DNA of 64,000 nt, taken from contig CAZHBA010000057.1 of the NCBI GenBank assembly GCA_964530225.1, forward strand, positions 553 through 64,552, written 5' to 3'. The notes beneath the pieces are model-generated. The model saw only the letters and a program-made list of their open reading frames with translations, did not search any database and was not told the DNA's origin. This DNA comes from an uncultured Rhodospirillaceae bacterium (GTDB taxonomy: Bacteria; Pseudomonadota; Alphaproteobacteria; UBA6615). The first letter of the stretch is position 1. Each line of letters begins with the position of its first letter. Made by a program: the position numbers and the translations under genes. Shown in pieces: positions 3,279-37,805 of the stretch.

Positions 3279-4268
3279 GTGGCTAACACATCGACAACTA
3301 GCCCCGTCACTTGGGTCGTCACCGACGGCCGGCTTGGTATGATCAACCAATGCCGTGGTCTTGTGGCAGCTTTGGGCGTAACGGCCGAAGAAAAAAAGAT
3401 CGTACTTTCGGCGCCGTGGTGCTGGCTACCGCCCGCTATAACCCCTGCCTGGCTAAGCGTGCTGTCTGGGTCAGGCGACCAGCTGTCGCCGCCTTGGCCG
3501 GAATTGCTTATCGGCACCGGACGTAAATCGGTGACACCGGCGCTGGCCGTCAAACGGGCCAGCGGTGGACATACTTTTTGCGTGCAGGTGCAGAACCCCG
3601 ATGTGGCCCTGGAAAAGTTTGATTTGGTCATCGCGCCCGACCACGACCAGCTCAGTGGTAGCAACGTTCTGAATACATTGGGCTCACTGCATGGCATTAC
3701 CGCCACCGTCCTCGACGAAGCCAGAGTGCTCTTCGCCGATACCATTGCCGGGCTACCCCGGCCTCTGATCACCGTGTTACTTGGTGGCCACAATGCGGTC
3801 TACCGCATGGATGAGAGCATCGCCGCTCAGCTTGCCGATGATCTGGCGGCACTCGCTAGTGCCAAGGGTTACGGACTTGCCATCACCGCTTCGCCGCGCA
3901 CACCGAGCAAAACGGTCGACCTAATAAACCAGCGTCTTGCTACTGAACTGGTGAGCTCGAAAGCGGTATTTTGGGACGGCAATGGCGCCAACCCCTATCT
4001 GGGTTATTTGGCGCATGCCGACGCAATCATCGTAACTGGCGACTCGGTGAACATGGTCAGCGAAGCGGCGGCTACGGGAAAGCCCGTCCATGTCATCGAT
4101 TTGCCTGGCGGGTCCGATAAGTTTCGCCGCTTTCATACCGCTATGGCCAAGGCGGGAATTACCCGTCCCTTTAGCGGCGCCATAGAGTACTGGTCCTATA
4201 CCGCACCCAACGATACGAATCGTGTCGCGACGGAAATCCACCGCTGCATGAGCCAACGCGGCATCTGA
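3279..4268 (+). CDS. ELM1 / DUF1022 family protein, a predicted nucleotide-sugar-dependent transferase-like protein.
   Basis: About 330 aa. The N-terminal motif VTDGRLGMINQCRGLVAALG resembles the bacterial ELM1-family signature (xLTDGKxGHENQ). It is the first gene of a tightly spaced four-gene operon. Confidence 0.6.
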   Translation: MANTSTTSPVTWVVTDGRLGMINQCRGLVAALGVTAEEKKIVLSAPWCWLPPAITPAWLSVLSGSGDQLSPPWPELLIGTGRKSVTPALAVKRASGGHTFCVQVQNPDVALEKFDLVIAPDHDQLSGSNVLNTLGSLHGITATVLDEARVLFADTIAGLPRPLITVLLGGHNAVYRMDESIAAQLADDLAALASAKGYGLAITASPRTPSKTVDLINQRLATELVSSKAVFWDGNGANPYLGYLAHADAIIVTGDSVNMVSEAAATGKPVHVIDLPGGSDKFRRFHTAMAKAGITRPFSGAIEYWSYTAPNDTNRVATEIHRCMSQRGI

Positions 4269-4315: not shown

Positions 4316-4933
4316 ATGGCTGCGCTTAATCTAGCCGCAATCGATTCAGCGATGCCGAGCTATGATCCGTTCGAACACGTGATCGTGCCCGGTGTGTTAT
4401 CGGGCGATGTCTTGTCGGCGATCCACGAAGATTTCCCAAGGATCGATAAACCCGGCAGTCATCCGCTGTCGCAAATTTCCTATGGGCCTCGCTTCAACAC
4501 GCTGCTCGATGAACTGCGGTCGCATGAGTTCGCCGAACGGGTTGGCGCCAAGCTTGGCATCGATCTAGCTAACCGGCCAACGATGATCACGGTACGCGGC
4601 CAGTGCCGGACCACGGACGGCAAGATACACACCGATTCCGTGGGCAAACTGGTGACCGTCCTGATATATCTCAATCCCTCGTGGGAGGTACCAGGCGGGC
4701 AGTTGCGCTTGCTGCGCAACTGCCACGATCTGGATGATTATGTGGTCGAGGTACCGCCCGAGGAGGGCACGTTAGTGGCGTTCACCTGCAGCCCCAACGC
4801 CTGGCATGGGCATCACCCCTTCGAGGGTCAACGGCGGACAATCCAGCTAAACTGGGTCCACAGCCGAGGTTACAAATTGCGCGAACACGTGCGCCACACC
4901 ATATCGGCCAGCTTTAAGAAATTATCCGGTTAG
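4316..4933 (+). CDS. 2OG-Fe(II) oxygenase superfamily protein (prolyl-4-hydroxylase-like).
   Basis: An H-x-D...H iron-binding pattern (HTDSVGK ... WHGHH) sits in a double-stranded beta-helix-sized core. It begins 47 nt after the ELM1-like gene. Confidence 0.65.
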   Translation: MAALNLAAIDSAMPSYDPFEHVIVPGVLSGDVLSAIHEDFPRIDKPGSHPLSQISYGPRFNTLLDELRSHEFAERVGAKLGIDLANRPTMITVRGQCRTTDGKIHTDSVGKLVTVLIYLNPSWEVPGGQLRLLRNCHDLDDYVVEVPPEEGTLVAFTCSPNAWHGHHPFEGQRRTIQLNWVHSRGYKLREHVRHTISASFKKLSG

Positions 4934-4954
4934 GCCGGCGCAGAATTCATCGCC

Positions 4955-6955
4955 ATGGCCCTGAACATCGACACCTTTTCCAACATCAAGGGCGGCTTTC
5001 CGTTTTTCAAGGCGATGGACCATCCCGCGGTCGCGCCGAAAGCGCGCACTCTACTCACCCGCCTAGCCGATAACGGACCGCTGGCGATCTATGACCCGAC
5101 GGGCTTCGCCACGGCATTTTCCGAAATCTATCCGCTGACCGGCCTCGATATCGCCCATGTATATGTGCAGGATTTGTCCGCCCTGGGACAGCAAGTATTC
5201 GGCCACACGACCCAGCCGGTTACCGATTTGGCTTCTGACGATGTTACTTCGCTTCTGGTCGTCGCTTTCGATGCCGACAAGATTTTGCGCGACATCGCGC
5301 TTCTGGTGCCGCCAGCCACCGAAGTTTTCACCCTCGACGAGTTGCGCCTCGACGAGAGCCGACTGACCAACAAAAAACTTTATCTGGACCCGTTCAACTT
5401 TGCGACCAATTTCGCCTGGTTCCGCGACGCGCCAGATGGCCGCGGTGGCCACCTGCACAGCCGCGTGGCAACCGCCAACTATTGGCACCGCTATGGTGCC
5501 CGCGATGTGACCCTGTGGCTAACGCTACTCGATGAAACCGGGGAGACGATCGCCGAGTGGGACCAACCGTTACCCGACGCGCCCGCAGGCATCATCATCG
5601 ACAGCGCCGAGGTACGGGAACGCTTCGGTCTCAGCGACTTTACCGGTCAGCTGTTCTTGCACGCCATCGGCATCGCCGGCCACGATATCGTCAAATATGC
5701 GTTGGATACTTTCGGCGACGATCCCAAAGATCTGTCGTGCACCCATGACGCCAACGCCTGGCCGGCCGATTTTTATGCCGGACTGCCGGCACCGAAGGCC
5801 GACGAACGCGTGGTGCTATGGATCCAAAATAGCCACCCCTGCCCGATCCCCACCAACGCCATCGGCCTCAACCTCATGGGCGACGATGCGGACGCAGTGT
5901 GGCTGGACGAGGAAATTCCACCTTTTGCCACCTACGCGCTTGATGTCGCCCAGCTGCTGCCCGACATTGAGTGGCCGCAGCAGTTGGAAGTGCGCGCCGG
6001 CAAGCATTTCGTGCGGCCGCGTTACGAAATCGAGTGCACCTCTAACGGACAAATCAACCGGCGACGAATGGCGCACACCAATGTCGAGCGCACCGACCTA
6101 GAGCCCAACCCGCAGATCGCCGAGATCAGCAATTTGATGGGCAAGGGTTTCCTGCTTCCAGCACCAGTCTTGCCGCCGGAACGTTACCGCTCAATTATGT
6201 TGCCGACGCCAATGACGCGGACCCAAGAGATCCTGCCGGTCGCCGTCTTGATTTACGACGCAAAGGGCCGCGAGGTCGCCCGCCACAACTTCGGCGAACT
6301 CGCCCGCACCGAATGTGCCGCCATCAATGCCGACGAATTGGGTGATGGCCAGCTCAACGATACACTCGACGGCGAGGCCGGCCACATGGAATTGGTCTAC
6401 GACTTCCCCGCCGCGACGCGCGATGTCGACGGCTGGCTGCATGCGCTGTTCCGCTACGAAGACAAGGCGACCGGCCACGCGGCGGAATCGAGCTTCGGCG
6501 CACACATCTTCAATACGGTGCTGACCTGGAAGGACGAACCCCAGTCCTACACCGACAATCCACCGGGCCTGTCGACGCGGCTGTTTCTGCGCACTGCCCC
6601 GGGTATGGCCGTACCAGGGTTGGCGACGGATGGCGACGGCGCCAACAGTTTCTGCCAACTCATCTATCCCGCTTCAACGCCGTGGCACGGCGCCTCGCAG
6701 ACCGATCTTACGCTTCACGCCGGCGATGGCAGCGTGGTGGCAACACAGACGGTGAATATTCCTTGTGGCGGCTCGCTCTACTGGCTCCTCTCGGACATGT
6801 TTGACGAAAGCCAGCGCGCCCGCGCTGCCGAAGCTGGCCCAGCCGGCGGCGGTTATGTGATGATCCGCGATACCACCTGCCGGTTATTCGGTTATCATGG
6901 CCTGATCGCCGCCGACGGCGCAGCATTCAGCCTGGACCATATGTTCGGATTCTAA
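4955..6955 (+). CDS. Large hypothetical protein (666 aa): an N-terminal ~130-aa domain followed by three roughly 150-aa internal repeats.
   Basis: Long high-GC ORF with coding-like composition and no recognisable catalytic motif. It begins 21 nt after the oxygenase gene, and the next gene starts 22 nt after it. Confidence 0.7.
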   Translation: MALNIDTFSNIKGGFPFFKAMDHPAVAPKARTLLTRLADNGPLAIYDPTGFATAFSEIYPLTGLDIAHVYVQDLSALGQQVFGHTTQPVTDLASDDVTSLLVVAFDADKILRDIALLVPPATEVFTLDELRLDESRLTNKKLYLDPFNFATNFAWFRDAPDGRGGHLHSRVATANYWHRYGARDVTLWLTLLDETGETIAEWDQPLPDAPAGIIIDSAEVRERFGLSDFTGQLFLHAIGIAGHDIVKYALDTFGDDPKDLSCTHDANAWPADFYAGLPAPKADERVVLWIQNSHPCPIPTNAIGLNLMGDDADAVWLDEEIPPFATYALDVAQLLPDIEWPQQLEVRAGKHFVRPRYEIECTSNGQINRRRMAHTNVERTDLEPNPQIAEISNLMGKGFLLPAPVLPPERYRSIMLPTPMTRTQEILPVAVLIYDAKGREVARHNFGELARTECAAINADELGDGQLNDTLDGEAGHMELVYDFPAATRDVDGWLHALFRYEDKATGHAAESSFGAHIFNTVLTWKDEPQSYTDNPPGLSTRLFLRTAPGMAVPGLATDGDGANSFCQLIYPASTPWHGASQTDLTLHAGDGSVVATQTVNIPCGGSLYWLLSDMFDESQRARAAEAGPAGGGYVMIRDTTCRLFGYHGLIAADGAAFSLDHMFGF

Positions 6956-6977
6956 GCAGGAATAATAAGGGGAATTC

Positions 6978-7709
6978 ATGGAGGAGAAAGAATCGCGGAT
7001 CACCACCGCGGAAGGCGAGATGTATGCCTTTTCGGCCTGGCCGGAGGACGACGGACCGCACCCGGTGGTGATCATGTACATGGATGCACCGGGCATCCGC
7101 GAAAAACTGCGCAACTTCGCCCACCGCATCGCCGGCCAAGGCTATTACGCGCTGCTACCCGACCTGTATTACCGGCTCGGCGATATCCGCTTCAACCTGG
7201 CCAACCGCAACGACAAAATGGACGAGATGATCTTCGCTGCATGGCATAGCCTGAGCAACGCCGGGGTCGCCAGCGACACCAAGGCAATGCTCGAATTTCT
7301 CGGCAACGACGCGGAGGCCTCCGACGGTCCCATGGGCTGCGTCGGCTATTGTATGAGTGGCGCCTTCGTCGTCACCGTGGCCGGCACGTTCCCCGACCGG
7401 TTCGCAGCTAACGCCTCGCTCTACGGTGTCTGGATCGTCACCGAGCACGACGATTCGCCGCACCGGCTGGCCGATAAAATCGAAGGCGAAATGTATTTTG
7501 CCTTCGCCGAGCACGACCAGTGGGTGCCCGACAACGTCATTCCCGATCTTACCGCCACCCTCGACACACATGGGGTTGCCCACGAGATCGAAACCTATCC
7601 CGGCACCGAGCACGGCTACGCCTTTCCCGAGCGTGCCACGTACGACGAACCCGCCGCCGAGGCAACGTGGACAAAGATATTTGATCTGTATTCGCGCACG
7701 CTAGGATAA
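6978..7709 (+). CDS. Dienelactone hydrolase family protein.
   Basis: alpha/beta hydrolase fold with the nucleophile-elbow-like motif CVGYCMSGA and a DLH-like N-terminus. It is the last gene of the operon. Confidence 0.8.
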   Translation: MEEKESRITTAEGEMYAFSAWPEDDGPHPVVIMYMDAPGIREKLRNFAHRIAGQGYYALLPDLYYRLGDIRFNLANRNDKMDEMIFAAWHSLSNAGVASDTKAMLEFLGNDAEASDGPMGCVGYCMSGAFVVTVAGTFPDRFAANASLYGVWIVTEHDDSPHRLADKIEGEMYFAFAEHDQWVPDNVIPDLTATLDTHGVAHEIETYPGTEHGYAFPERATYDEPAAEATWTKIFDLYSRTLG

Positions 7710-7779
7710 TTGTGCCTTGCGTGTTACCGGCGCGACTGGGACACTTTTGTGAATTAGGCATTTCCTGGGAGACATTTTC

Positions 7780-8889
<1,110 letters not shown>

Positions 8890-9029
8890 GTTATGTACCG
8901 TTTTGTTCGCGCCAGCCTTGCCTCCCACGGGTGGCCCAACTATCTAAATACCAGCAAAATCAACATGGTCTCGTAAACCAACTCCGCTGGGCGGGTCCCG
9001 GCCGCCAGAAATTACTCAGGAACCCCAAC

Positions 9030-10001
9030 ATGCCCAAAACCCATCACTCCAAGGCCCTGATCATCGGCTCTGGCGCTGCCGGCTGTACGGCTGCCGTCTA
9101 TGCCGCACGCGCCAACCTGAAGCCAACGATGATCCACGGTATGCAACCGGGCGGCCAGTTGACGATCACCACCGATGTGGAGAACTTTCCGGGGTTCGCC
9201 GAGGCCATCCAGGGGCCTTGGCTGATGGAGCAGATGGAAGCGCAGGCGGAGAATGTGGGTACTGAAATCGTCAATGACGTGGTCACCGCCATCGACTTCA
9301 GTGCCCGCCCCTTCGCTTGCGAGTGCGATTCCGGCAACATCTATACTGGCGATACCTTGATTATCACCACCGGCGCCTCGGTACGCTGGTTGGGCCTTGA
9401 ATCCGAACAGAAGTATAGCGGCTTCGGGGTTTCTGCGTGCGCAACCTGCGACGGTTTTTTCTACCGCGACAAGCCGGTAATGGTGATCGGTGGCGGCAAC
9501 ACGGCAGTCGAAGAAGCGCTGTTCCTAACCAACTTCGCCAGCAAGGTGACACTAGTCCACCGGCGCAACGAATTGCGCGCCGAAAAGATCATGCAGGACC
9601 GCCTGTTGCACAACGACAAGATCGAAGTGACTTGGAACTCAGTTCTCGAAGAGGTAGCGGGTACCGACAACCCGCCGGGTGTCACCGGTGCACGGGTGCG
9701 TAACATTAAAACTGATGAGATCACCAAAATTGCTGTCGACGGTATTTTCATCGCCATCGGCCACGATCCCAATACGGCGCTGTTCAAGGGCTATCTGGAT
9801 ATGGACGATGAAGGCTACTTGATTACCGCGCCCGACAGTACGGCCACCAATATTCCCGGAATATTCGCCGCCGGCGACGTGAAAGACAAGATATTCCGCC
9901 AAGCGATCACCGCGGCCGGCATGGGCTGCATGGCCGCACTGGAAGCCGAGAAATTCCTCGCCGCGACCGAGGCAGGCAACACCCGCAACGCCACCGAGTA
10001 G
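9030..10001 (+). CDS. trxB: Thioredoxin-disulfide reductase.
   Basis: FAD motif GSGAAG, redox-active CATC and NADPH motif GGGNTA. The start was trimmed to MPKTHHSKALIIG. Confidence 0.85.
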   Translation: MPKTHHSKALIIGSGAAGCTAAVYAARANLKPTMIHGMQPGGQLTITTDVENFPGFAEAIQGPWLMEQMEAQAENVGTEIVNDVVTAIDFSARPFACECDSGNIYTGDTLIITTGASVRWLGLESEQKYSGFGVSACATCDGFFYRDKPVMVIGGGNTAVEEALFLTNFASKVTLVHRRNELRAEKIMQDRLLHNDKIEVTWNSVLEEVAGTDNPPGVTGARVRNIKTDEITKIAVDGIFIAIGHDPNTALFKGYLDMDDEGYLITAPDSTATNIPGIFAAGDVKDKIFRQAITAAGMGCMAALEAEKFLAATEAGNTRNATE

Positions 10002-10043
10002 CCCGTTGTCGATCAACCAACACTTCGACGGAGTATCCCGCTA

Positions 10044-10943
10044 GTGCCGATGGACTGGGATAAGCTGCGGATATTCCATGCGGTGGCGGAAGCCGGTAGC
10101 TTCACCCACGCTGGTGACAGTCTGCATTTGAGCCAGTCGGCGATCAGCCGGCAAATCAGTTCGCTGGAAGAATCGCTTAATTGCCGGCTATTCCACCGCC
10201 ATGCGCGCGGCCTACTGCTCACCGAGCAGGGCGATTTGTTGTACCGTACCGTGCACGAGGTCTTCGCCAAGCTAACCATGGCCGAAGCCCAACTCAATGA
10301 CGCGCAGGAAAGGCCCCAGGGTCCGCTCAAGATCGCGACAACGGTCGGTCTGGGATCGCTGTGGCTGACGCCGCGCATCCGCGAATTCATCGACCTCTAT
10401 CCCGACATCGAAGTCACCCTGATCACCTCGGACGAGGAGCTCGACGTTTCTATGCGCGAAGCCGACTGCGCCATTCGTCTGACGCCGCCGACCCAGCCGG
10501 ATTTAATTCAGCGCCGCATCACCCGCGTCAACACGCACGTTTTTGCGTCACCCGATTACCTACAGCAAAACGGGATGCCCGACCGGATTACCGATCTCGG
10601 CGCTCATAAATTGATCGTCTACAGCGAAGAAGGCACAATGCCAGCTCCAAATCTCAACTGGCTGCTCAATGCCGCGCGCGAAGCCATCGACGGCGAACCG
10701 CAAAAAATCCTCACCCTCAATAACCTTTATGGGATGGTCCGCGCGGTCGAGGCGGGAATTGGTATCGCCGGATTACCCGATTTCTTCGCCCGGGAATCGC
10801 GCAGCCTGGTTCGTGTTTTACCTGAGCTCGAAGGCCCCGGAAACGATGCTTTTTTTGTTTATCCGGAGGAACTGAGAGCATCGCAGCGTATTGGCGTATT
10901 CAGAGATTTCCTCATTAGAAAAGTCGCCGAAACGCGCTTCTAA
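10044..10943 (+). CDS. LysR-family transcriptional regulator.
   Basis: N-terminal HTH (FHAVAEAGSFTHAGDSLHLSQSAISRQISSLE) plus a LysR substrate-binding domain. Confidence 0.85.
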   Translation: MPMDWDKLRIFHAVAEAGSFTHAGDSLHLSQSAISRQISSLEESLNCRLFHRHARGLLLTEQGDLLYRTVHEVFAKLTMAEAQLNDAQERPQGPLKIATTVGLGSLWLTPRIREFIDLYPDIEVTLITSDEELDVSMREADCAIRLTPPTQPDLIQRRITRVNTHVFASPDYLQQNGMPDRITDLGAHKLIVYSEEGTMPAPNLNWLLNAAREAIDGEPQKILTLNNLYGMVRAVEAGIGIAGLPDFFARESRSLVRVLPELEGPGNDAFFVYPEELRASQRIGVFRDFLIRKVAETRF

Positions 10944-10971
10944 GCGTAAAATAGCTTCTAAGCGTAAAATA
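10936..10971. repeat. Perfect tandem duplication of the 18-bp unit gcttctaagcgtaaaata, overlapping the LysR stop codon.
   Basis: Two identical adjacent units are visible directly in the sequence. Confidence 0.8.
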
Positions 10972-11039
10972 TTAGTGCGAAAATAGAATAAGCTTTTGAT
11001 TTAAAATATTATGTTGGGTATTACAAAACTGCATATCTG

Positions 11040-11256
11040 ATTAACCGATTTGGAACAGTGAGATCGCGCACAGACGTTCTATTTTGAACAGTGTAGCGAT
11101 GCTCTTAAAGCACCGACCGCGTATAGCGCGCCTCCCTCCCGGCGCACACGCGAAGGGCACACGCGAGGGGTTGTGCAAGTAGCCCTTACGTCTCCCAAGA
11201 CGTAAAGCCTCCCTGTTCAACTCGGCCGGACCCCCATCGGGTCCGGCCTTGTTTTT
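11040..11256 (+). ncRNA. Candidate small structured RNA ending in an intrinsic terminator.
   Basis: No credible ORF. Contains a 9-bp hairpin (cttacgtct/agacgtaaag), a direct repeat gcacacgcga x2, and a strong terminator ggccggaccc-ccatc-gggtccggcc followed by TTGTTTTT at 11225..11256. The upstream region is AT-rich and promoter-like. Confidence 0.25.
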
Positions 11257-11289
11257 AACGATTGCTTCAGCCGGCACCCAGCAGTTACC

Positions 11290-11940
11290 GGTAGAGCGGC
11301 TCTTTCTTCAGACCAGTATATAAACCAGCCACGAATTCCGCATACCTACTGAATAACTGCGCCGACACACGGTCGCGCTGGCTGCCGCCGAGCAGCCATT
11401 CGCTTGCCTGGCTCCAGCGCCGATGATTGACCTCCGGATTCACGTTGCCCAGAAACCGTATTCGTTTTCCTGCAGCGCCCCCAGAAGGTCTTAGGGCGTT
11501 GATCGGTAAAGCTGATAATCGACTTGAAGCCGTACCTCCACAGCACCGCCATTGCCCATGCTTCGACGCAGCGGCGACGGTGGAGGCGCTCCTCCAACGT
11601 TACCTTTTTCAACAGATTGCCGATGCCGATCTAGAGTTTTTTCTCGACCATACCATCGATTAAAATCTCCCAGAGACGGATATGGAGCCGCTGGACGCTA
11701 CGCGAGATTTTCTTGTGGGAGCAGAACTCGTAGCGGTTGTTAGTTATAGGTGATGGCATCCCACTCAGCGGTGATATCGCGGTCGAGCACGTAGGTCGGA
11801 TTGCGCTTTACCGGATACATGCCCACCGTCGGGCCCTAGCCCTTCGTCACCATCGCCTGGCTGGTCATCAACCTGGAGATAGTTCCGGTGATAATCGGGC
11901 CGGCCGCAATCGTCTTAGCGGTCTGGCGGTGGTTTAAAAG
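11290..11940 (-). pseudogene. Degraded coding remnant or remnants; identity unknown.
   Basis: Protein-like minus-strand translation (MATPEDVLLNHRQTAKTIAAGPIITG...) is interrupted by an in-frame TAG and several frame changes. Short overlapping ORFs occur on both strands. The 1.2-kb gap between genes is otherwise unexplained. Confidence 0.3.
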
Positions 11941-12145
11941 CACATCTTCTGGCGTCGCCATATATTCGGTCAATTTTCAACCGCGTTTGACTTTGACGAG
12001 CATCATTTCTCCATACGCCTAGAGCACACGTTCCGGATACATTGTGCCACTCCTAAAATGTGTAAAGCGTAAACGAAACGCAGCTCACACGTAGTTCAAT
12101 GTTTTTGTCATGAAACAAACCACTTTTTGCAGTGTTAACCCAGTT

Positions 12146-13810: not shown

Positions 13811-15103
13811 TTAGGCGAGTGACTCCGGCTTGGGTCCGCCCGTTGCCCAGTCGAGCAACTCCACCGTATGGACAATCGGCGCGTCGATGTCGTCGGCGAG
13901 CTGAGTCATACAGCCGATATTGCCGGTGGCGACGATGTCCGGTGTGGTCGCCGTGATGTTGGCGGCCTTGCGCTCACGTAGTTGGTCGGCCAACTCACTC
14001 TGCAAAATGTTGTAGGTCCCGGCCGAGCCGCAGCACAGATGGCCCTCGGCCGGCTCGCTAACCATGTATCCGGCGGCCGACAGCAGATCACGCGGCTGAC
14101 GATGCACGCTTTGGCCATGCTGCATGGAACATGCCGACTGATAGGTCACCCGCAGATCGGCCGCGTTGCCGGTGGCCGGCAATACGGCGCCGAGTTCAGT
14201 AACAAATTCGGTCACGTCGCAGGCCAGCTGCGAAATCCGAGTCGCCTTATGGGCGTAGTCCGGATCGTCGCGGAATATGAAGCCATAATCCTTGATCTGG
14301 GTGCCGCAGGCGCTGGAATTGATAATTACGGCATCGAGGCCGCCGGCGTCGATCTCGCGGATCCAGGCATCGACGGTGGCTTTCGCCTGGGCATGCGACT
14401 GATCGACCTTGCCCAGATGATGGACCAGCGATCCACAGCAGCCAGCGCCGTCGGCAACCACCACCTCAACACCCAGCCGCGTCAGCAGGCGTACTGTCGC
14501 CTCGTTGATCTGCGGCGCCAACACGGTTTGCGCGCAGCCGTTGAGCAAGGCGACGCGCTTGCGGCGTTCACCCTCAGCGGCGATCACTTGCGGCTTGTCG
14601 ACCGGCGACGGCTTGGGCATGCGCCGCGGTGCCAGCGCCAGACTAGCGCGAAACCGCTTGGGCAGCAGCCCGGCGAAAGGGCGCGCTATCATCGCCGCGA
14701 TCAGCGTCAGCCGGAATCGCGACGGATAGGGAATGGTCATCGCCAGACCCCAGCGGATTATTCGGTCCATAATCGACCGGCGGTAGGTCTCTTCGACGTG
14801 TTTGCGCCCCTGGTCGATCAAATGCTGGTAGTGCACGCCAGCCGGACAGGTGGCCATACACGACAGGCACGACAAACAGCGGTCGATATGGGTGACCACT
14901 TCGCGGCTGGCCGGCGCCTCGGCCTCCAGCATCTGCTTTATCAGATAGATGCGCCCACGCGGGCTATCGAGCTCGTCGCCGAGCAGTACGTAAGTGGGGC
15001 AGGTCGCGGTGCAGAAACCGCAATGGACGCAGGTGCGCAGAATATCGTTCACCACCGCGGTGTCGGAATCGGCCAGTTGCGCTAGCGAGAAGTGGGTCCG
15101 CAT
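13811..15103 (-). CDS. glcF: Glycolate oxidase iron-sulfur subunit.
   Basis: Two 4Fe-4S ferredoxin CxxCxxCxxxCP motifs plus CCG domains. It is the last gene of the glcDEF operon. Confidence 0.85.
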   Translation of the reverse strand: MRTHFSLAQLADSDTAVVNDILRTCVHCGFCTATCPTYVLLGDELDSPRGRIYLIKQMLEAEAPASREVVTHIDRCLSCLSCMATCPAGVHYQHLIDQGRKHVEETYRRSIMDRIIRWGLAMTIPYPSRFRLTLIAAMIARPFAGLLPKRFRASLALAPRRMPKPSPVDKPQVIAAEGERRKRVALLNGCAQTVLAPQINEATVRLLTRLGVEVVVADGAGCCGSLVHHLGKVDQSHAQAKATVDAWIREIDAGGLDAVIINSSACGTQIKDYGFIFRDDPDYAHKATRISQLACDVTEFVTELGAVLPATGNAADLRVTYQSACSMQHGQSVHRQPRDLLSAAGYMVSEPAEGHLCCGSAGTYNILQSELADQLRERKAANITATTPDIVATGNIGCMTQLADDIDAPIVHTVELLDWATGGPKPESLA

Positions 15104-15106
15104 CGC

Positions 15107-16357
15107 TTAAACCCCACGATACATGCGGCCAGGGTTGAGGATATGCCGAGGATCGAAGCTGTCTTTCACCCGCGCGGACAGGGCGGCCAAACCGGCGGCC
15201 TGGGGTTGGAAGACTTCGACTAGCGCCCGCACTTCGTCGGAGGCCCGCACCAGCGTCGCATGCCCGCCACCGTGCTGGCCGAGCGCCGAGCGCACAGCGG
15301 CGGTGCCGCCATCGTCGCCATCGTCGTCGACGCGGTACCAGATCAATCCGCCGCCCCAGTCGTAAAACGCCGTACCCGGCCGTGCATTGATTATATCGCG
15401 CAACACCGCCGCGCCTTCACTCGCGGTCACTGAAATGCGCCACAGAGGCTGATTGCCGACCTGAAACGGGACAACATCGCGCACTTCCTGCCAGAATATG
15501 GCCGAATTGGCACTGTGCAATTCCTCTAACGCCCCGAACGAGCCCAGCAGCGCACGCAGTGCCTCGGTGCGAGCTGCCACCGATGTATCGAACCCCTCGA
15601 CCCGCAACGCTGTTACCGCCACGCCGGCGCCGTTGACGTAACCGACCGCGGATTGCGCCGCCACCGGAGCAGGCAAGTGCGCAGCACCAGAGACCTCGTG
15701 GCTGGAGTTGAGTGCCACGGTCATCGCCTGCTGCGTCGTCTTATCGTCGAGACCAAATACTAAAACCGTGCGAATTTTTTCCGACGCCGGCAGCACCTTA
15801 ACGGTGATCTCGGTCAGCGCCGCGAGGGTGCCGTAAGACCCGGTCATCAATTTCGACAGATCGTAGCCGGTGACATTTTTAACCACGCGGCCACCGCTTT
15901 TGATCGCCTCGCCGCGTCCGCTCACGCCCGCTACTCCCAGGACGTGATCCCGCGCGGCACCGGCCTTGATACGCCGCGGGCCGGCCAGATTACAGGCGAT
16001 AGCACCGCCCAGGGTGCCGCCGTCATTGCCATACAGACGGGCCATATGCATCGGCTCAAAGGCCAGTTGCTGGCCACTTCCAACAGCCGCGGCCTCGATT
16101 TCGGCGAGCGGCGTGCCGGCACCGGCGGTGAGTACCAGCTCTTCAGGCTCGTACAGCGTGATGCCGCTTAAATGTGACAGGTCGAGGGTGTAGTCAATAA
16201 TGCGATTGCCTTCACCACTATGTTGGCCAAGTATTGGCCGACCAAGACCGCGCTTAGTCGCGGTGCCAGCAACCTCCAGCGGTACCTCCTCACCGACCGC
16301 CCAGGCAACGATCTCGACCACCTGTGCTGCATTCGTCGGCTGTAACAGTTCGGTCAT
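15107..16357 (-). CDS. glcE: Glycolate oxidase FAD-binding subunit.
   Basis: FAD_binding_4 family protein. It overlaps or abuts glcD and glcF. Confidence 0.8.
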   Translation of the reverse strand: MTELLQPTNAAQVVEIVAWAVGEEVPLEVAGTATKRGLGRPILGQHSGEGNRIIDYTLDLSHLSGITLYEPEELVLTAGAGTPLAEIEAAAVGSGQQLAFEPMHMARLYGNDGGTLGGAIACNLAGPRRIKAGAARDHVLGVAGVSGRGEAIKSGGRVVKNVTGYDLSKLMTGSYGTLAALTEITVKVLPASEKIRTVLVFGLDDKTTQQAMTVALNSSHEVSGAAHLPAPVAAQSAVGYVNGAGVAVTALRVEGFDTSVAARTEALRALLGSFGALEELHSANSAIFWQEVRDVVPFQVGNQPLWRISVTASEGAAVLRDIINARPGTAFYDWGGGLIWYRVDDDGDDGGTAAVRSALGQHGGGHATLVRASDEVRALVEVFQPQAAGLAALSARVKDSFDPRHILNPGRMYRGV

Positions 16358-16361
16358 AGCG

Positions 16362-17855
16362 CTAGAATCGCGGCAGGTTGGGAAATGGCATCTGGCCGCG
16401 GTTGATATGCATGCGGCCGAGCTCGGCGCAACGGTACAGGGTGGGAAAAACCTTGCCCGGATTCAGGAGTTGCTTCGGGTCGAAGGCGCATTTGACCCGC
16501 TGCTGCTGGTTTAAGTCTTCTTCGGAGAACATCAACCCCATCAGATCACGTTTCTCTACACCGACACCGTGTTCACCAGTAAGCACACCGCCAACTTCGA
16601 CGCATAACCGCAATATGTCCGAGCCAAAATCTTCGGCCCGTTCCAGTTCACCGGGATTGTTGGCGTCGTACATGATGAGCGGATGCAGGTTACCGTCGCC
16701 GGCGTGAAACACATTGGCAACGCCCAGTCCGTACTTCTCGGACAATTCCGCCGTGCGCGACAGCACTTCCGGTAACCGGTGGCGCGGGATGGAGCCATCC
16801 ATGCAGTAATAATCGGGGGTCAGGCGGCCGATGGCCGAAAAGGCCGCCTTGCGACCCGCCCAAAACTGCTCGCGTTCCTCTTCGCTCTCGCTGATGCGTA
16901 CCGAGACCGAACCTAAATCATCGGCAATCGAGCATACCTGCTCGATCAAATAATCGACTTCGGCAGGCGGCCCATCAAGCTCAACCAACAGCATCGCCTC
17001 AACATCCAGTGGGTAACCCACTTGCACGAAAGCCTCGGCCGCCTTGATCGCCAGCTGGTCCATTATTTCCATGCCGCTGGGGATAATGCCGTCACCGATA
17101 ATATTGGCAACGCATTGGCCGCTGGCCTCGGAACTGTTGAAGCCGATCATCACCGCCCGGGCAGTTGTCGGTTTCGGCAAAATTCGAACCGTGACTTCGG
17201 TGATAACCCCGAGCAGACCTTCCGAGCCGGTCATCAGGCCCAATAGATCGTAACCTTCGCTGTCCATGTGCTTGCCACCCAGGCCAACGATTTCGCCACC
17301 GGGCAGGACCATCTCGATGCCGAGGATATTGTTGGTGGTGAGACCATATTTCAGGCAATGCACGCCGCCGGAATTTTCCGCCACATTGCCGCCGATGGTG
17401 CAGGCAATCTGGCTCGACGGGTCGGGGGCGTAGTAAAATCCTTCGCCATCGACCGCTTGCGAGATGCCCAGATTGGTCACCCCGGGCTGCACCCGCGCAC
17501 AGCGGTTGTCGTAGTCAATTTCGAGCACCCGGTTGAACTTGCCCAACCCCAGGGTGATGCCATCGGCCAGGGGAAGTGCACCGCCAGACAACGACGTGCC
17601 GGCGCCACGCGGCACGATCTTCACATTGTTCTGATGGCAATAGGCCAGCACCTGGCTCACCTGGGCCACGGTTTCCGGCAGGACGACGATCATCGGTAAT
17701 TGGTGGTAAGCGGTTAGCCCATCGGTCTCGTAGACCGCCATCTCCTTCTCGTCGGAAATCACGCACGGGCCCGACACGATGGCGATCATCGCTGCAACAA
17801 TCTCGCCGCGCCGCACCAATACCGATTGATCGGGATCAGGCATTTTCATCGGCAC
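16362..17855 (-). CDS. glcD: Glycolate oxidase subunit GlcD (FAD-linked oxidase).
   Basis: FAD-binding PCMH domain plus FAD-oxidase C-terminal domain. It is the first gene of the minus-strand operon. Confidence 0.85.
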   Translation of the reverse strand: MPMKMPDPDQSVLVRRGEIVAAMIAIVSGPCVISDEKEMAVYETDGLTAYHQLPMIVVLPETVAQVSQVLAYCHQNNVKIVPRGAGTSLSGGALPLADGITLGLGKFNRVLEIDYDNRCARVQPGVTNLGISQAVDGEGFYYAPDPSSQIACTIGGNVAENSGGVHCLKYGLTTNNILGIEMVLPGGEIVGLGGKHMDSEGYDLLGLMTGSEGLLGVITEVTVRILPKPTTARAVMIGFNSSEASGQCVANIIGDGIIPSGMEIMDQLAIKAAEAFVQVGYPLDVEAMLLVELDGPPAEVDYLIEQVCSIADDLGSVSVRISESEEEREQFWAGRKAAFSAIGRLTPDYYCMDGSIPRHRLPEVLSRTAELSEKYGLGVANVFHAGDGNLHPLIMYDANNPGELERAEDFGSDILRLCVEVGGVLTGEHGVGVEKRDLMGLMFSEEDLNQQQRVKCAFDPKQLLNPGKVFPTLYRCAELGRMHINRGQMPFPNLPRF

Positions 17856-18365: not shown

Positions 18366-19394
18366 ATGAGCATACAGCACGAAACGATCGAAGAACTGAC
18401 GGCCAGTGGCGAGGAAATTCCGATCCTCGATCTGGGTCCCTATCTGGTTGGTGAACCCGGCGCGCTCGATGCGTTGGCAGCCGAACTGCGCCACGCCCAG
18501 GAAGACGTTGGCTTCTACTTTTCGATCAATCACGGCGTGCCGCGCGAGTTGATCCAGCGCGCCTACGATCAGCTGCGTAAACTGTTCGCTCTGCCGGAAG
18601 AGGAAAAGCTCAAGCTCAAGGTCGGCAAGGCGGGGCTTGGCTATATCCCGCCGAAGTCGTCGATCTACGTCACCTCGCCAGTCAACCAAAATACTATGCC
18701 CGACCTCAACGAGGTGATTTTGACGGCCCGCGAACGGCCCGCCGACCACCCGTCAATCGTCGCCGGGCGCCGCTTTACCGGCCCCAATAAATGGCCCAAC
18801 GAGACGTTGGTGCCGGGTTATCGCGAGACGTTGCTGGAATACTACGCGGTGATGGAGGCACTCGGTTACAAGATGTTGCCGGTATATGCCCGCGCACTCG
18901 GCCTGCCGGCGGATTATTTTGAACCGTTCTTCACCGACCCCACCTGGACCACGCGCAACGCCCACTACCCGCCGGCGCAGGCAGAGGACAACCAGTTCGG
19001 CATCGCGCCGCACCGCGACCATGGGTTCATTACGCTGTTACCCCTGTCTGAGGAGCCGGGCCTGCAGGTCCAGTCCAGCAGCGGTAAATGGATTTCGGCC
19101 AACATCATTGAGGACGCGATCGCCGTAAACACCGGCGAGTTCCTGAGCCGATGGTCGAACGGTCGTTTCATGGCTACCCCGCACCGGGTCGTGCCGCCCA
19201 AGCGCGACCGCTATTCGCTCGCCTTCTTCTTCAACCCCACTTGGGATGTGGTGTCGGAGCCCTTTCCCACTTGTGTTGGCCCCGACAATCCGCCGCAGTT
19301 CAAGCCAGGAACTTTCCTCGATTACCTGAACTGGTACGTTGACAGTAACTTCTCGAGTGCCGGTGGCGGCAAACGTCAACACGCTTCTGTGTAG
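18366..19394 (+). CDS. 2OG-Fe(II) oxygenase of the isopenicillin-N-synthase-like family.
   Basis: DIOX_N-like N-terminus (IPILDLG...) and a C-terminal HxD...H core (HRDHG...HRV). Confidence 0.75.
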   Translation: MSIQHETIEELTASGEEIPILDLGPYLVGEPGALDALAAELRHAQEDVGFYFSINHGVPRELIQRAYDQLRKLFALPEEEKLKLKVGKAGLGYIPPKSSIYVTSPVNQNTMPDLNEVILTARERPADHPSIVAGRRFTGPNKWPNETLVPGYRETLLEYYAVMEALGYKMLPVYARALGLPADYFEPFFTDPTWTTRNAHYPPAQAEDNQFGIAPHRDHGFITLLPLSEEPGLQVQSSSGKWISANIIEDAIAVNTGEFLSRWSNGRFMATPHRVVPPKRDRYSLAFFFNPTWDVVSEPFPTCVGPDNPPQFKPGTFLDYLNWYVDSNFSSAGGGKRQHASV

Positions 19395-29671: not shown

Positions 29672-29734
29672 GCTCTGCGGGCCATTACCCGAGCCGATTG
29701 ACATGCCCGGCCAAGGCGGTTAAATCTCCTCTAT

Positions 29735-29795
29735 CGCGCCGATTTGAGTGGCCAGCTTGCGGGCGCGTAATAAATGCAGCTAAATGGGCGATTTG
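29735..29795 (+). promoter_or_regulatory. Candidate SAM-responsive leader (SAM-II-like) upstream of metZ.
   Basis: CGATTTGA...CCAGCTTGC...GCAGCTAAA arrangement, repeated once more at 29790-29815. A stem (ccgcc...ggcgg) plus T7 at 29809-29838 follows. metZ and metA leaders in alphaproteobacteria commonly carry SAM-II. This is pattern recall only. Confidence 0.3.
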
Positions 29796-29995
29796 AACTC
29801 CGCCCAGCTTGGCTACGGCGGTTTTTTTGTTGTTTTAGAGAGTGTTAAGTAATTCCGGACCGATCCCCCGACGGCAGCGCCGCAAACTGGATCCGCGGTA
29901 ATTTGATGGGCAGCTTGCGTCCGCGTCACCAATAGCTAAAGCGCCGTGGGACAAACGTTCCGCGGGCCCGAACAACGGCCTCGGAACCGATTTGT

Positions 29996-31184
29996 AATGA
30001 CCAAAGATACCCCTAAATTCCGTCAGGAAACCGCCCTTGTGCGCGGTGGCCTAGAGCGCTCGCCTTTCCGCGAGACCAGCGAGGCGCTGTTCCTCAATTC
30101 CGGCTACGTGTTCGACAACGCCGCGCAGGCGGAAGCCGCCTTCAAGGGCGAGAACGACAACTACATCTACTCGCGCTACGGCAACCCCACGGTCAACATG
30201 TTCCAGGAACGCCTGGCCGCGCTCGAAGGCGCCGAGGCGTGCTATGGCACCGCGACCGGCATGGCGGCAGTGTTCGCCTCACTGGCCTGCCAGCTTAACA
30301 CCGGCGACCGGGTGGTGTCCTCGCGCGCGGTGTTCGGCTCGTGCCACATCATCGTCGATCAGATCCTGCCACGCTGGGGCATCGAGACGGCATTCGTCGA
30401 CGGCACCAACCTGGACGAATGGGAAGCCGCCCTGTCGCAGCCAACCAACGTGGTGTTCCTGGAAAGCCCGTCGAACCCCATGCTCGACCTGGTCGATATC
30501 GCCGCAGTCAGTGACATGGCGCACGCCGCCGGCGCCTGCGTCATCGTCGATAACGTGTTCGCCACGCCGCTCTACCAGCGCCCGTTCGAGCTGGGCGCCG
30601 ATATCGTCGTCTACTCCGCCACCAAGCATATCGACGGCCAGGGCCGTTGCCTCGCCGGCGCAGTGCTGGCCAGTGCCGAATTCATGACCGAGAAGTTCAT
30701 GCCGTTCTACCGGCACACCGGCCCGTCACTCAGCCCGTTCAACGCCTGGGTCATACTCAAGGCGCTGGAGACCCTATCGGTGCGGGTTGAACGCCAGTCG
30801 GACGCCTCGCTCGACCTGGCGCGCTTTCTGCTAGAGCAACCGAAAATCAAGCAGATCTGCCATCCGGGGTTGGATAGCCATCCCCAGGCCGAGCTGGCAC
30901 AGCGGCAGATGTCGGGTTTTGGCAATCTGGTGACCTTCGAAGTAGACGGTGGCAAGGACGCGGCGTTCCGGCTGACCGATGCGCTGTCGATCATCGATAT
31001 CTCGAACAATCTAGGCGACACCAAGAGCCTGGTCTGCCATCCGGCGACGACCACCCATTCGCGGCTATCGGAAGAGGAGCGCGCCCAGCTTGGCATCTCG
31101 CCCGGCGTGCTGCGCGTTTCGGTGGGTCTGGAACATATCGACGACCTGAAGGAAGACCTGGAACGCGCCCTCGCCGCGGTTTGA
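29996..31184 (+). CDS. metZ: O-succinylhomoserine sulfhydrylase.
   Basis: Gamma-family PLP enzyme with the typical MetZ N-terminus (MTKDTPKFRQETALVRGG) and ~395 aa length. Confidence 0.85.
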
Positions 31185-37366: not shown

Positions 37367-37679
37367 TGACCCAGTTCTCCGCCGTTGGTGAAGGAGAGCA
37401 TTACGGAGTGGAGCATTTTGGATCCAAATTCATCACAGTACTCGCGTTTTGACAGCCGCTATTTTTATTGCCCCAATCTACCGAACAACACACACGGCCA
37501 TTGGGGTGCTAGCAATAACTATTTAAGCCTTCCGGGTACCGGGTGCCACTGACATAGCTCAAGCGAGCGTCGCTCGTTCAGCGCGCTAAGTCTTTGGATA
37601 ATAGTAGGAGCGGCAAGGACCGTACAATTGCGCAAAATAAAGAGACCAATCCCGCCAGGCACAGGTATACAGGGGGAAA

Positions 37680-37754
37680 TGGTGGGCGCGGTAGGGTTTG
37701 AACCTACGACCCCCTCGATGTCACCGAAGTGCTCTTCCGCTGAGCTACGCGCCC
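37680..37754 (-). tRNA. tRNA-Val (anticodon GAC), with the CCA encoded.
   Basis: The reverse complement GGGCGCGTAGCTCAGCGGAAGAGCACTTCGGTGACATCGAGGGGGTCGTAGGTTCAAACCCTACCGCGCCCACCA folds as a cloverleaf with a 7-bp acceptor stem, a TTCAAAC T-loop and an anticodon loop GTGACAT. Confidence 0.85.
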
Positions 37755-37805
37755 CACCGTCGCGGGCTAGTTGCCGGTAATGAGCACCGCAACGCCCGTC
37801 GCGCA

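Follow-up and report, generated by a model that had tools for sequence, protein, structure and literature searches.

The 666-aa protein encoded at nt 4955–6955 of the window, i.e., the whole stretch of 64,000 nt that was analysed, is a member of a real, widespread and uncharacterised bacterial protein family for which there is no Pfam model, name or structural relative. Gene context is the strongest functional clue: since the gene almost always lies beside that of a KdoT-family glycosyltransferase, the protein (referred to below as the target) is probably a player in outer-membrane sugar assembly. As a tentative assignment, which we infer with less than even confidence, a KdoT-type transferase of LPS inner-core assembly may have in it a soluble partner that acts as an enzyme or as a binding subunit.

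The target orf and its protein family

According to the ORF list and translation, the target orf ran on the + strand from an ATG at nt 4955 to a stop codon at nt 6953–6955, exactly as placed by the first-pass annotation. Its product had a full-length match with 100% identity (P0001) and more than 4,648 homologues, 630 to 690 aa in length and every one named "hypothetical", in at least 588 species genomes, mainly of Rhodospirillales-type Alphaproteobacteria. The N-terminal sequence MALxIxTFSN was conserved among these homologues, thereby confirming the start codon. Identity between orders was 57% to 60%, and 58 columns were invariant, many of them His, Asp, Arg, Asn, Gln, Tyr or Trp. Apparent fusions or extensions among the 50%-identity representatives (P0171, P0175, P0195, P0196, P0221, P0256 and P0262) were rejected as Arg-rich frameshifted translations from high-GC contigs.

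The earlier statement that the protein has no recognisable motifs was borne out, as the target had no match in Pfam-A 2025 or NCBIfam 20.0 and a search with 35 homologues at E ≤ 10 returned just four single-member chance matches and no family. The best hit of a sequence-profile search against the PDB had E = 0.82, and tblastn against PLSDB plasmids, aimed at an annotated copy, gave no match. Hence none of Pfam, NCBIfam, PDB profiles and Foldseek (see below) tied the target confidently to any characterised family, a result that the first-pass annotation had named as counting against it. As had also been noted, neither a hydrophobic segment of transmembrane strength (maximum Kyte-Doolittle 19-residue mean, 1.57) nor signal-peptide-like features at the N-terminus were present, and a soluble cytoplasmic protein is the best explanation. 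Members of the family were acidic (median pI 5.95) and contained 16 to 37 His residues each. At minimum, the family merits a DUF/Pfam entry of its own in which the domain boundaries are set out.

Domain architecture and internal modules

The AlphaFold2 model of the target was compact and confident (pLDDT 87.6, pTM 0.89). In it, an alpha/beta domain at the N-terminus was followed by four beta-sandwich modules, and a single invariant loop was poorly modelled. The initial description, an N-terminal domain plus three repeats of about 150 aa, therefore requires revision, since the modules measured about 125 aa and a further sandwich between the first two had been missed. The N-terminal domain (residues 1–140, nt 4955–5374, + strand, as are all segments below), predicted as a Rossmann-like beta-alpha-beta arrangement from the AlphaFold2 secondary structure with pLDDT above 90, was the least conserved part of the target, only A20, H23 and D47 being invariant among its 140 positions. 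Module M1 (residues 146–270, nt 5390–5764), delimited by AlphaFold2 secondary structure and by hhalign to M2 and M3, possessed conserved residues that include H236, H243-D244, K247 and H264-D265-x-N267. The additional sandwich, designated X (residues 271–395, nt 5765–6139), was seen in the full model, in a sub-model of residues 141–395 and with Foldseek; it carried the invariant residues Q343, R354-P-R356-Y357, H374-x-N376 and R379, and its order of elements was broadly that of M1 to M3, while similarity in sequence to these was undetectable (hhalign ≤0.7%).

Module M2 (residues 396–522, nt 6140–6520), assigned from AlphaFold2, the diverse alignment A2 and hhalign, had conserved residues including H477, W494, H496 and H517-x-x-N520. 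It was followed by the loop EPQSY..PPGL (residues 523–539, nt 6521–6571), in which 8 of 17 positions were invariant (E528-P-Q-S-Y532 and P537-G-L539); no other part of the target was as highly conserved and, within the low-confidence segment 522–539 of the model, this was the only stretch with pLDDT below 50. Module M3 (residues 540–666, nt 6572–6952), supported by AlphaFold2, the M2-M3 hhalign comparison and a global alignment, had invariant residues including D639, R643-L-F-G646 and the C-terminal D661-H662-x-F-G, whereas at least 90% of the sequences shared H648 and the final F666. Each sandwich possessed one invariant His in its last strand (H264, H374, H517 and H662), followed by an invariant Asn in three of them.

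The three repeats proposed initially corresponded to real, probably distantly related beta-sandwich modules near the positions given, but the repeats were not demonstrable at conventional significance. Self-BLAST and pairwise BLAST among the segments first proposed gave no repeat signal (best E = 0.13), and hhalign on an alignment of close homologues (A1) gave the module pairs probabilities of just 7% to 11% because its diversity was too low. With A2, containing 25 diverse homologues (39% to 80% identity), and z-scores computed against 40 column shuffles, M2-M3 reached a probability of 50.5% (score 29.1, z = 8.7), M1-M2 30% (z = 4.8) and M1-M3 12% (z = 2.9), all of them below conventional cut-offs. 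Six of seven control segment pairs, including all four with residues 271–395, gave ≤0.7% and z ≤ 1.4; the seventh, the N-terminal domain versus M2 (2.3%, z = 3.1), overlapped the weakest module pair, M1-M3.

These comparisons partly confirmed the view that M1, M2 and M3 descend from one ancestral module, a duplication that, judged from profiles and model, would be very old and falls short of the formal threshold for repeat detection. Independent Ig-like beta-sandwiches, showing weak profile similarity through a common beta-sandwich periodicity, would agree with the blank BLAST results and with hhalign probabilities that peak at 50.5% and fall to 12% for M1-M3; moreover, column shuffling destroys secondary-structure periodicity and therefore inflates the z-scores. 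Nevertheless, we regard such an origin without duplication as unlikely. The equally beta-rich residues 271–395 stayed at background against all three modules, so that beta-richness alone is not the source of the module signal, and the three alignments were mutually in register (M1 37–83, M2 34–81 and M3 34–80). The order b1-b2-b3-b4-b5-helix-b6-b7-b8, with its single helix between b5 and b6, was read from the AlphaFold2 DSSP strings of residues 146–270 and 540–666, and the same order was found in residues 396–522 except that b5 was not called as a strand of at least three residues. When M2 and M3 were aligned globally, their C-terminal halves matched motif by motif (YDF with RDT, LFRY with LFGY, and SFGAHIFN with FSLDHMFGF), so that the similar module ends reported previously hold for this pair.

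Foldseek searches with the target model retrieved just generic tandem Ig-like barrels and no catalytic fold. The top matches, both for the whole model and for residues 141–395, were to the tandem of C-terminal beta-barrels 1 and 2 in transglutaminases (factor XIII, TG2, TG3 and protein 4.2), where Ig-like barrels of seven or eight strands likewise follow one another. Probability reached 0.91 over about 255–270 aligned columns, but TM-scores were only 0.08–0.18 and identity was 7% to 12%. These barrels are non-catalytic appendages, whereas the sandwiches of the target hold most of its invariant polar residues. Identity as a transglutaminase was rejected, as the papain-like Cys-His-Asp core was absent, Transglut_core was not matched and only the C-terminal barrels aligned. 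The sole single-domain match that superposed well was the beta-sandwich protein TM1070 of Thermotoga maritima (PDB 1nc7), which aligned with one of the two sandwiches in residues 141–395 (probability 1.00; TM 0.61–0.63 normalised to the 116–117 residues of TM1070; 117–119 aligned columns; rmsd 4.6–5.0; 14% to 16% identity). To our knowledge TM1070 itself has no characterised function, and its PDB entry title names none; therefore, no function was transferred to the target.

Two other identities were set aside. A glycosyltransferase was rejected, with no such Pfam family matched and no such enzyme among the 50 PDB matches listed by Foldseek for the whole model. For a three-domain cupredoxin or multicopper oxidase, the invariant His residues 23, 264, 374, 496, 517 and 662 were isolated and did not form HxH pairs, and no cupredoxin appeared in the Foldseek or Pfam results. 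Comparison by hhalign of each target segment with an ELM1 alignment gave ≤1.9%, and with the 2OG oxygenase described below no relation was detected.

Neighbouring genes and their linkage

The suggestion that the target is a novel operon component agreed with the arrangement in the window, where this uncharacterised gene forms a tight operon with ELM1-like and 2OG-oxygenase genes, separated by gaps of 47 and 21 nt. The first gene (nt 3279–4268, + strand) encoded an ELM1-family GT-B glycosyltransferase similar to KdoT; it matched PF06258 over profile positions 2–302 of 304 with E = 4.7e-99 and a score of 331.8 bits, the cut-off being 27. The second (nt 4316–4933, + strand) encoded a prolyl-4-hydroxylase (P4H)-like 2OG-Fe(II) oxygenase, which scored 42.9 bits with PF13640 (cut-off 27). 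Its facial triad H105-x-D107...H164/H166 and its 2OG-binding Arg, R173, were intact and conserved in at least 95% of 55 sequences. Its best PDB sequence relatives were a putative hydroxylase and P4H/PHD-type enzymes (9blq, 9ei6, 4iw3 and 6ey1), on which ground a KdoO/LpxO-type role was set aside; a literature search on 9BLQ and 9EI6 returned nothing relevant. Downstream of the target by 22 nt was a dienelactone-hydrolase-family gene (nt 6978–7709, + strand; Pfam DLH, E = 4.3e-40), which belonged to the operon only in marine loci (L001–L004, L006–L008 and L010–L012), the lineage that includes this window. No further LPS genes were located nearby in the window.

The function of bacterial ELM1-like proteins was opaque until work of 2024–2025 demonstrated that KdoT attaches the third Kdo in the core of Acinetobacter, the reason why it needs a partner in vivo having been left open. 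KdoT of A. baumannii (A1S_2903, "ELM1-like"), the only ELM1-like bacterial protein characterised biochemically, has a conserved SRRT motif and acts as a CMP-Kdo:Kdo2-lipid IVA transferase; it can be complemented by a homologue from Rickettsia, and its function in vivo depends on GnaT, the enzyme that follows it (PMC12856342, PMC10936431). R180, the second Arg of SRRT, matters for activity (PMC12856342). Members of the ELM1 family also occur in Acinetobacter outer-core loci as GtrOC1/14/19/22 (PMC4172580), which suggests that donors and acceptors may differ among its members. At the position of SRRT, the protein in the window had S205-P-R207-T208, with Pro in place of the first Arg, a residue that KdoT can do without. 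Of the ELM1 neighbours at 80 target loci, 72 had SRRT and 6 had SPRT, the functionally important second Arg being kept, and S205, R207 and T208 were at least 95% conserved. Thus, the neighbour in the window is predicted to be KdoT-like, and CMP-Kdo:Kdo2-lipid IVA KdoIII transfer by it is putative.

Among 78 distinct loci, an ELM1/PF06258 gene was situated upstream of the target on the same strand, within 6 kb, in 72. The gap between the two genes was below 150 nt in 15 loci and below 900 nt, the size expected with the 2OG gene alone between them, in 43; in L091 the ELM1 stop overlapped the target start. The 2OG oxygenase gene was upstream of the target in 49 of the 78 loci and absent from 29, and both ELM1-target pairs lacking 2OG and 2OG-target pairs lacking ELM1 occurred. 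The pair was observed in at least four unrelated neighbourhoods, beta- and gamma-type contigs included, and within LPS core/lipid A gene clusters of three unrelated lineages. The order was lrp-[ELM1-2OG-target]-trxB in Rhodospirillales, for which an ancestral lrp-trxB synteny with inserted genes was judged more likely than a functional linkage to trxB, and 2OG-ELM1-target-GT4-GT9-MTase-GT on a Methylophilaceae contig of uniform GC. L086 contained genes for an LpxL-type lipid A acyltransferase, GT2, a Wzy_C/WaaL-type ligase, GDSL and GT4 along with ELM1 and the target, and L091 and L093 had GT4, ELM1, the target and MnmC. Across a very large environmental and plant-associated alphaproteobacterial group, KdoT-like genes have in this family a near-obligate genomic partner; the group encompasses Azospirillum, Nitrospirillum, Pelagibius and abundant marine Rhodospirillaceae; its presence in cultured genera makes it open to direct genetic testing. 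No ELM1 gene was near the target in L043, L066, L090 or Azospirillum (L079 and L080), and in Azospirillum 2OG was also missing; a literature search for the Azospirillum core structure gave nothing usable. The KdoT carriers Acinetobacter and Rickettsia had no target homologue among the matches, and therefore neither protein strictly needs the other.

Possible roles of the target

By the assignment favoured here, the target would work in the cytoplasm with the upstream ELM1-family, KdoT-type GT-B enzyme to assemble or tailor the LPS Kdo/inner core, the P4H-like 2OG oxygenase often being an accessory tailoring enzyme. The beta-sandwich modules may build one composite binding or catalytic site, to which the last-strand His of each sandwich, together with R354, R356, Y357, R379, Q343, D265, D639 and D661, would contribute and over which the invariant mobile loop could serve as a lid. 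Such a site might carry out the "next step" on what the KdoT-like transferase has made, or hold that product so that transfer proceeds, analogous to the need of A. baumannii KdoT for GnaT in vivo. The resemblance to the KdoT and GnaT/LpsB system of the A. baumannii LOS inner core lies in an ELM1/PF06258 GT-B enzyme with S-R-R-T that adjoins or works with a second protein, in the cytoplasmic, membrane-peripheral setting, and in the location among LPS core/lipid A genes (GT4, GT9, LpxL-type and WaaL-type) in several lineages. The systems differ in that GnaT/LpsB is a GT4 enzyme, whereas the target is a 630- to 690-aa alpha/beta plus four-beta-sandwich protein of no known family; in addition, the motif in the window is SPRT, and the target family is known from sequence and models alone. 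Characterisation of the target could expose a new LPS inner-core step or a new enzyme fold, or else a bacterial protein that is prolyl-hydroxylated and glycosylated. An extended form of the proposal, which we consider unlikely, is that the family constitutes a new enzyme class, an all-beta catalytic machine of four duplicated Ig-like sandwiches. Equivalent His residues, one from each sandwich, would meet in a single composite active site, perhaps with a metal, that the invariant mobile loop would close, and the enzyme would perform a new step on the LPS Kdo/inner core with a KdoT-type transferase in Rhodospirillales-type Alphaproteobacteria and some Beta- and Gammaproteobacteria.

Several observations weigh against a role as LPS partner. 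No catalytic fold was recognised in the target by Foldseek, and Ig-like tandem barrels are usually non-catalytic; an acidic protein would be an odd binder for the anionic Kdo2-lipid A; and the 2OG oxygenase resembles protein prolyl hydroxylases and not the known LPS sugar or lipid hydroxylases. The loci in which the target stands apart from ELM1, the lack of other LPS genes near it in the window, and the possibility that much of the Rhodospirillales linkage is inherited synteny point in the same direction.

Ig-like sandwiches can be metalloenzymes, and the target could accordingly be a His-rich metal-dependent enzyme of a pathway unrelated to LPS, binding Cu, Fe, Zn or Mn via His/Asp of several sandwiches (cf. 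SOD, PHM and multicopper oxidases) and owing its ELM1 linkage largely to synteny. The His content of these acidic proteins, the invariant His at the equivalent last-strand position of each module, the further conserved H236, H243/D244, H477, H496, D639, H648 and D661, and the solitary target gene of Azospirillum would fit such an enzyme. We nonetheless judge it rather improbable, given that no HxH or other known metal-site motif was present, that neither Pfam nor Foldseek matched a cupredoxin, SOD or PHM, and that the ELM1 linkage persists in four unrelated neighbourhoods, so that synteny inertia is no explanation.

Instead, a cytoplasmic system for hydroxylation and glycosylation might have the target as its hub or substrate; the oxygenase would hydroxylate a loop Pro (N-P-P537-G-L, an X-Pro-Gly site) and the ELM1-like GT-B enzyme would glycosylate it. 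The model here is the Skp1 prolyl-4-hydroxylase (PhyA)/glycosyltransferase pathway of protists, where a soluble protein is likewise served by a 2OG oxygenase of the P4H type together with a glycosyltransferase. The parallel, to which the exposed invariant Pro-containing loop of the target belongs, is by analogy; the glycosyltransferase family differs, and the oxygenase is absent from 29 of 78 target loci. Consistent with a bacterial substrate of this kind are the kinship of the PF13640 oxygenase, its HxD...H and Arg intact, with P4H/PHD protein hydroxylases as nearest solved relatives, the placing of the invariant P529 and P537-G538 in the flexible, low-pLDDT loop, where conservation in the target is highest, and the target being the common denominator of the ELM1-target and 2OG-target pairs. 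However, the loop was just as invariant in the lineages lacking the oxygenase at the locus, its conservation therefore being independent of that enzyme; the ELM1 neighbours retain the KdoT donor-site motif, and the pair is found in LPS clusters. We know of no bacterial precedent for glycosylation of hydroxyproline by an ELM1-type enzyme, and the function of the target itself would be left unexplained. For these reasons we hold this role to be very doubtful. Returning to the proposed partnership with a KdoT-type transferase, the ELM1 neighbours were basic (median pI 9.6) and the target family acidic (5.95), which is compatible with a complex of the two proteins.

The 666-residue protein and its relatives

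The ATG-to-stop ORF at 4955–6955 (+), hereafter the target (666 codons), lay in a same-strand array behind an ELM1-like gene (PF06258, GT-B; 3279–4268, +) and a P4H-like 2OG-Fe(II) oxygenase gene (2OG; 4316–4933, +), and ahead of a dienelactone-hydrolase-family gene (6978–7709, +) followed by Zn-ADH, TrxR-like and LysR genes on the same strand. Intergenic gaps in the array were 21–70 nt, and carB-greA with a divergent Lrp/AsnC gene were located upstream. The predicted protein was strongly acidic (net charge -42, pI 4.7). As the first-pass annotation had described, it carried no recognisable motif: no match was found in Pfam-A or NCBIfam, 35 homologues scanned at E ≤ 10 gave isolated chance matches at most, and both a signal peptide and a hydrophobic segment of transmembrane strength were absent. 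A target profile searched against all PDB sequences reached E = 0.8 at best, so that no confident match to a characterised family emerged from the Pfam-A, NCBIfam and PDB profile searches. The family is unnamed and lacks a Pfam or NCBIfam model; it has no relative of solved structure, and none that is both characterised and detectable by sequence.

When 5.8 billion proteins were searched by word index, more than 4,648 relatives were retrieved; the best 120 were full length with 56–100% identity, and each named one among them was a "hypothetical protein" of Alphaproteobacteria or Rhodospirillaceae MAGs. Scanning one genome per species placed the family in at least 588 species, with cultured carriers including Azospirillum, Nitrospirillum, Rhodocista, Oleisolibacter and Pelagibius, in addition to many Kiloniellaceae, Stellaceae and Inquilinaceae MAGs and a few contigs bearing Methylophilaceae or Competibacteraceae labels. 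Exhaustive searching with HMMER across 1.84 billion representatives at 50% identity gave only 750 matches, the majority fragments, with about 25 full-length clusters; thus, the family is large in membership and narrow in divergence. Several apparently long or fused representatives (P0171, P0175, P0195, P0196, P0221, P0256 and P0262) were Arg-rich frameshifted translations from high-GC contigs that mimic fusions and N-terminal extensions, and as artefacts they were unfit for domain-architecture inference. Some carriers were labelled Anaerolineae, Competibacteraceae or Methylophilaceae (loci L036, L078, L084 and L085). L036 is probably a mis-binned contig, because it retains the alphaproteobacterial synteny ELM1-2OG-target-trxR, while L084 and L085, with a different gene context, look like genuine transfers.

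Domain architecture, probable internal repeats and conservation

The AlphaFold2 model built with a 35-sequence alignment was compact and of high confidence (mean pLDDT 87.6, pTM 0.89), comprising an alpha/beta, Rossmann-like domain (residues 1 to ~140) and four beta-sandwiches, M1 (146–270), X (271–395), M2 (396–522) and M3 (540–666); the loop at 522–539 was the sole segment with pLDDT below 50. The first-pass annotation, which had proposed an N-terminal domain and three repeats of about 150 aa, had therefore overlooked X and overestimated the modules, which measured about 125 aa.

Neither self-BLAST of the target nor BLAST among the segments proposed as repeats detected any repeat (best E = 0.13), and hhalign between modules on an alignment of close homologues was weak (7–11%). 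With a diverse alignment (A2; 25 sequences, 39–80% identity), hhalign probabilities were 50.5% for M2–M3 (score 29.1, z = 8.7), 30% for M1–M2 (score 26.6, z = 4.8) and 12% for M1–M3 (score 22.8, z = 2.9), z being measured against 40 column shuffles, and a single register was common to all three alignments (M1 37–83 = M2 34–81 = M3 34–80). X, as beta-rich as the modules, stayed at background against each of them (≤0.7%, z ≤ 1.4), indicating that beta-sheet periodicity is not the cause of the signal; the sole control pair above background, N-domain versus M2 (2.3%, z = 3.1), overlapped the weakest module pair in z. The order of elements in the AlphaFold2 secondary structure was identical in M1, M2 and M3 (b1-b2-b3-b4-b5-helix-b6-b7-b8, b5 being uncalled in M2). 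Global alignment of M2 and M3 paired YDF with RDT, LFRY with LFGY, and SFGAHIFN with FSLDHMFGF, which is the C-terminal pattern noticed in the first-pass annotation. We judge the triplication to be probably genuine, though ancient and short of formal significance. That the modules merely have the same fold, with no duplication, seems unlikely. X is possibly a fully diverged fourth copy, as judged from its element order and last-strand His.

In A2, with identity down to 39%, the N-domain was the least conserved part (3 of 140 positions invariant), and most invariant polar residues were situated in the sandwiches. The most conserved stretch was residues 523–539 (6521–6571), in which 8 of 17 positions were invariant, namely E528-P-Q-S-Y532 and P537-G-L539 (EPQSY..PPGL, containing an X-Pro-Gly site); this invariant, low-pLDDT loop might serve as a mobile lid or be modified. 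An invariant His occupied the last strand of all four sandwiches, H264, H374, H517 and H662 (codons at 5744, 6074, 6503 and 6938, +), and was followed within 1–3 residues by an invariant Asn in three of them (H264-D-A-N267, H374-T-N376 and H517-I-F-N520), the context in M3 being D661-H662. These findings suggest a repeated functional position, X included despite its lack of sequence similarity to the other sandwiches. At the C-terminus (DH-x-FG-F), D661, H662, F664 and G665 were invariant and F666 was present in at least 90% of the sequences.

Foldseek against PDB, a check that had been proposed for an AlphaFold model, assigned no characterised family; the whole model matched only multi-domain Ig-like arrays at TM ~0.1 (CD109/C3 macroglobulin domains, the Bap BSP domain, GH2 Ig domains and transglutaminase C-terminal barrels). 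A sub-model of residues 141–395 alone (pLDDT 80.2) resembled barrels 1 and 2 as they occur in tandem in factor XIII, TG2, TG3 and protein 4.2 (probability ≤0.91, TM 0.15–0.18), and one sandwich within it superposed well on T. maritima TM1070 (1nc7; probability 1.0, TM 0.62, 119 columns), which to our knowledge is uncharacterised. The search revealed no catalytic fold (GT-A/GT-B, jelly-roll lyase/hydrolase, cupredoxin or propeller), and at this Foldseek sensitivity the overall arrangement had no PDB counterpart.

Gene linkage and neighbouring proteins

Among 78 distinct related loci, each flanked upstream by at least 2.5 kb, an ELM1/PF06258 gene preceded the target on the same strand in 72; the gap was <150 nt in 15 of these and <900 nt, the size expected if 2OG alone intervenes, in 43. 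The 2OG gene was present in 49 of the 78. The ELM1-target pairing holds across unrelated neighbourhoods. The Rhodospirillales context was carB-greA-lrp(-)-[ELM1-(2OG)-target]-(DLH/ADH)-trxB-lysR. In Methylophilaceae-labelled L084, dnaJ-dnaK-grpE(-) was followed by 2OG-ELM1-target-GT4-GT9 (heptosyltransferase family)-methyltransferase-Glyco_trans_1_2 (cluster 4317–12047), and the uniform GC content indicates that this contig is not an assembly chimera. L086 (1156–9833) carried genes for a lipid A biosynthesis acyltransferase (LpxL-type), GT2, a Wzy_C/O-antigen-ligase-type protein, GDSL, GT4, zf-CHCC, ELM1, target and MnmC. Both of these beta-/gamma-type contigs place the pair inside a clear LPS core/lipid A cluster. 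L091–L093 shared the order GT4, zf-CHCC, ELM1, target, MnmC, and in L091 the stop codon of ELM1 overlapped the start of the target. In L087, ELM1 lay beside asmA (opposite strand, ~3 kb off), and the target stop codon was directly followed by the start of a SAM methyltransferase gene. Exceptions were Azospirillum (PadR(-), then target-trxB, no partner nearby), L066 and L043 (2OG-target without ELM1) and L090 (MFS-target-SDR).

Among bacterial ELM1-like proteins, only A. baumannii KdoT (A1S_2903) has been characterised biochemically. This CMP-Kdo:Kdo2-lipid IVA transferase, an inverting GT-B enzyme, adds KdoIII, and its conserved SRRT motif includes R180, a residue that matters. KdoT can be complemented by a homologue from Rickettsia, and in cells it works only with the next enzyme, GnaT, active (PMC12856342, PMC10936431). 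ELM1-family genes are also present in Acinetobacter outer-core loci, as GtrOC glycosyltransferases (PMC4172580). Like KdoT, target-linked ELM1 genes carried SRRT in 72 of 80 loci, whereas six, the window included (S205-P-R207-T208; 3891–3902, +), had SPRT, the Arg lost being the one reported dispensable in KdoT; the Ser, second Arg and Thr were at least 95% conserved. The ELM1 neighbours were basic (median pI 9.6) and the targets acidic (median pI 5.95). The 2OG oxygenase (PF13640) possessed conserved H105-x-D107, H164/166 and R173, and its nearest solved relatives were a putative hydroxylase (9blq, 2e-12), a P4H-domain protein (9ei6), 4iw3 and a HIF prolyl hydroxylase (6ey1). The oxygenase is thus more like protein prolyl hydroxylases than the known LPS hydroxylases.

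Possible role and other features of the window

We tentatively favour the target as a soluble partner of the KdoT-type transferase in cytoplasmic Kdo/inner-core LPS assembly or tailoring, where it would act as the following-step enzyme or as a binding subunit pulling transfer forward. A single composite site would be formed across its beta-sandwiches by the repeated His(-Asn) positions, an Arg/Tyr/Gln cluster (Q343, R354, R356, Y357 and R379) and the mobile invariant loop. The architecture, the lack of a known family and the gene linkage are observed, as is the triplication at the strength given above, whereas this site and the LPS role are inferred. The failure to recognise any catalytic fold, the acidity of the target, the linkage exceptions and the P4H-like oxygenase all speak against such a partner. 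Alternatively, a prolyl-hydroxylation/glycosylation system could target the X-Pro-Gly loop, the protein itself being its substrate or hub, but the loop is just as invariant where the locus lacks an oxygenase, and we consider this improbable. The reading as a His-rich metalloenzyme of an unrelated pathway, linked through synteny, is weakened by the four independent gene contexts and seems rather unlikely. That the family represents a new class of all-beta enzymes, serving an inner-core LPS step yet to be described, is a doubtful proposal. With the target as a KdoT-type partner, the system looks like the KdoT-plus-partner logic recently described for inner-core assembly, but with a partner protein that has no precedent. 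The family offers a sound lead that can be tested; it does not yet demonstrate a new mechanism.

Downstream of the target operon, a GlcF-like Fe-S/CCG subunit gene (Pfam; 13811–15103, -) was followed by two more minus-strand ORFs (15107–17855); the genes syntenic after the Fe-S/CCG gene in L001 (15327–17989) were FAD_binding_4 (glycolate-oxidase-type). A second, unrelated 2OG oxygenase of the isopenicillin-N-synthase-like type (DIOX_N + 2OG-FeII_Oxy; 18366–19394, +) lay next to an operon for an amino-acid ABC transporter and the gene of a trypsin-like/PDZ protease. A SAM riboswitch of the alphaproteobacterial type (Rfam RF00521, SAM_alpha; 29726–29803, +; 47.4 bits versus a gathering score of 36) was located ~140 nt 5′ of a Cys/Met-metabolism PLP enzyme gene (29946–31184), and a tRNA gene (37683–37754, -; Rfam RF00005, 61 bits) lay within a spurious 152-codon ORF (37519–37977).
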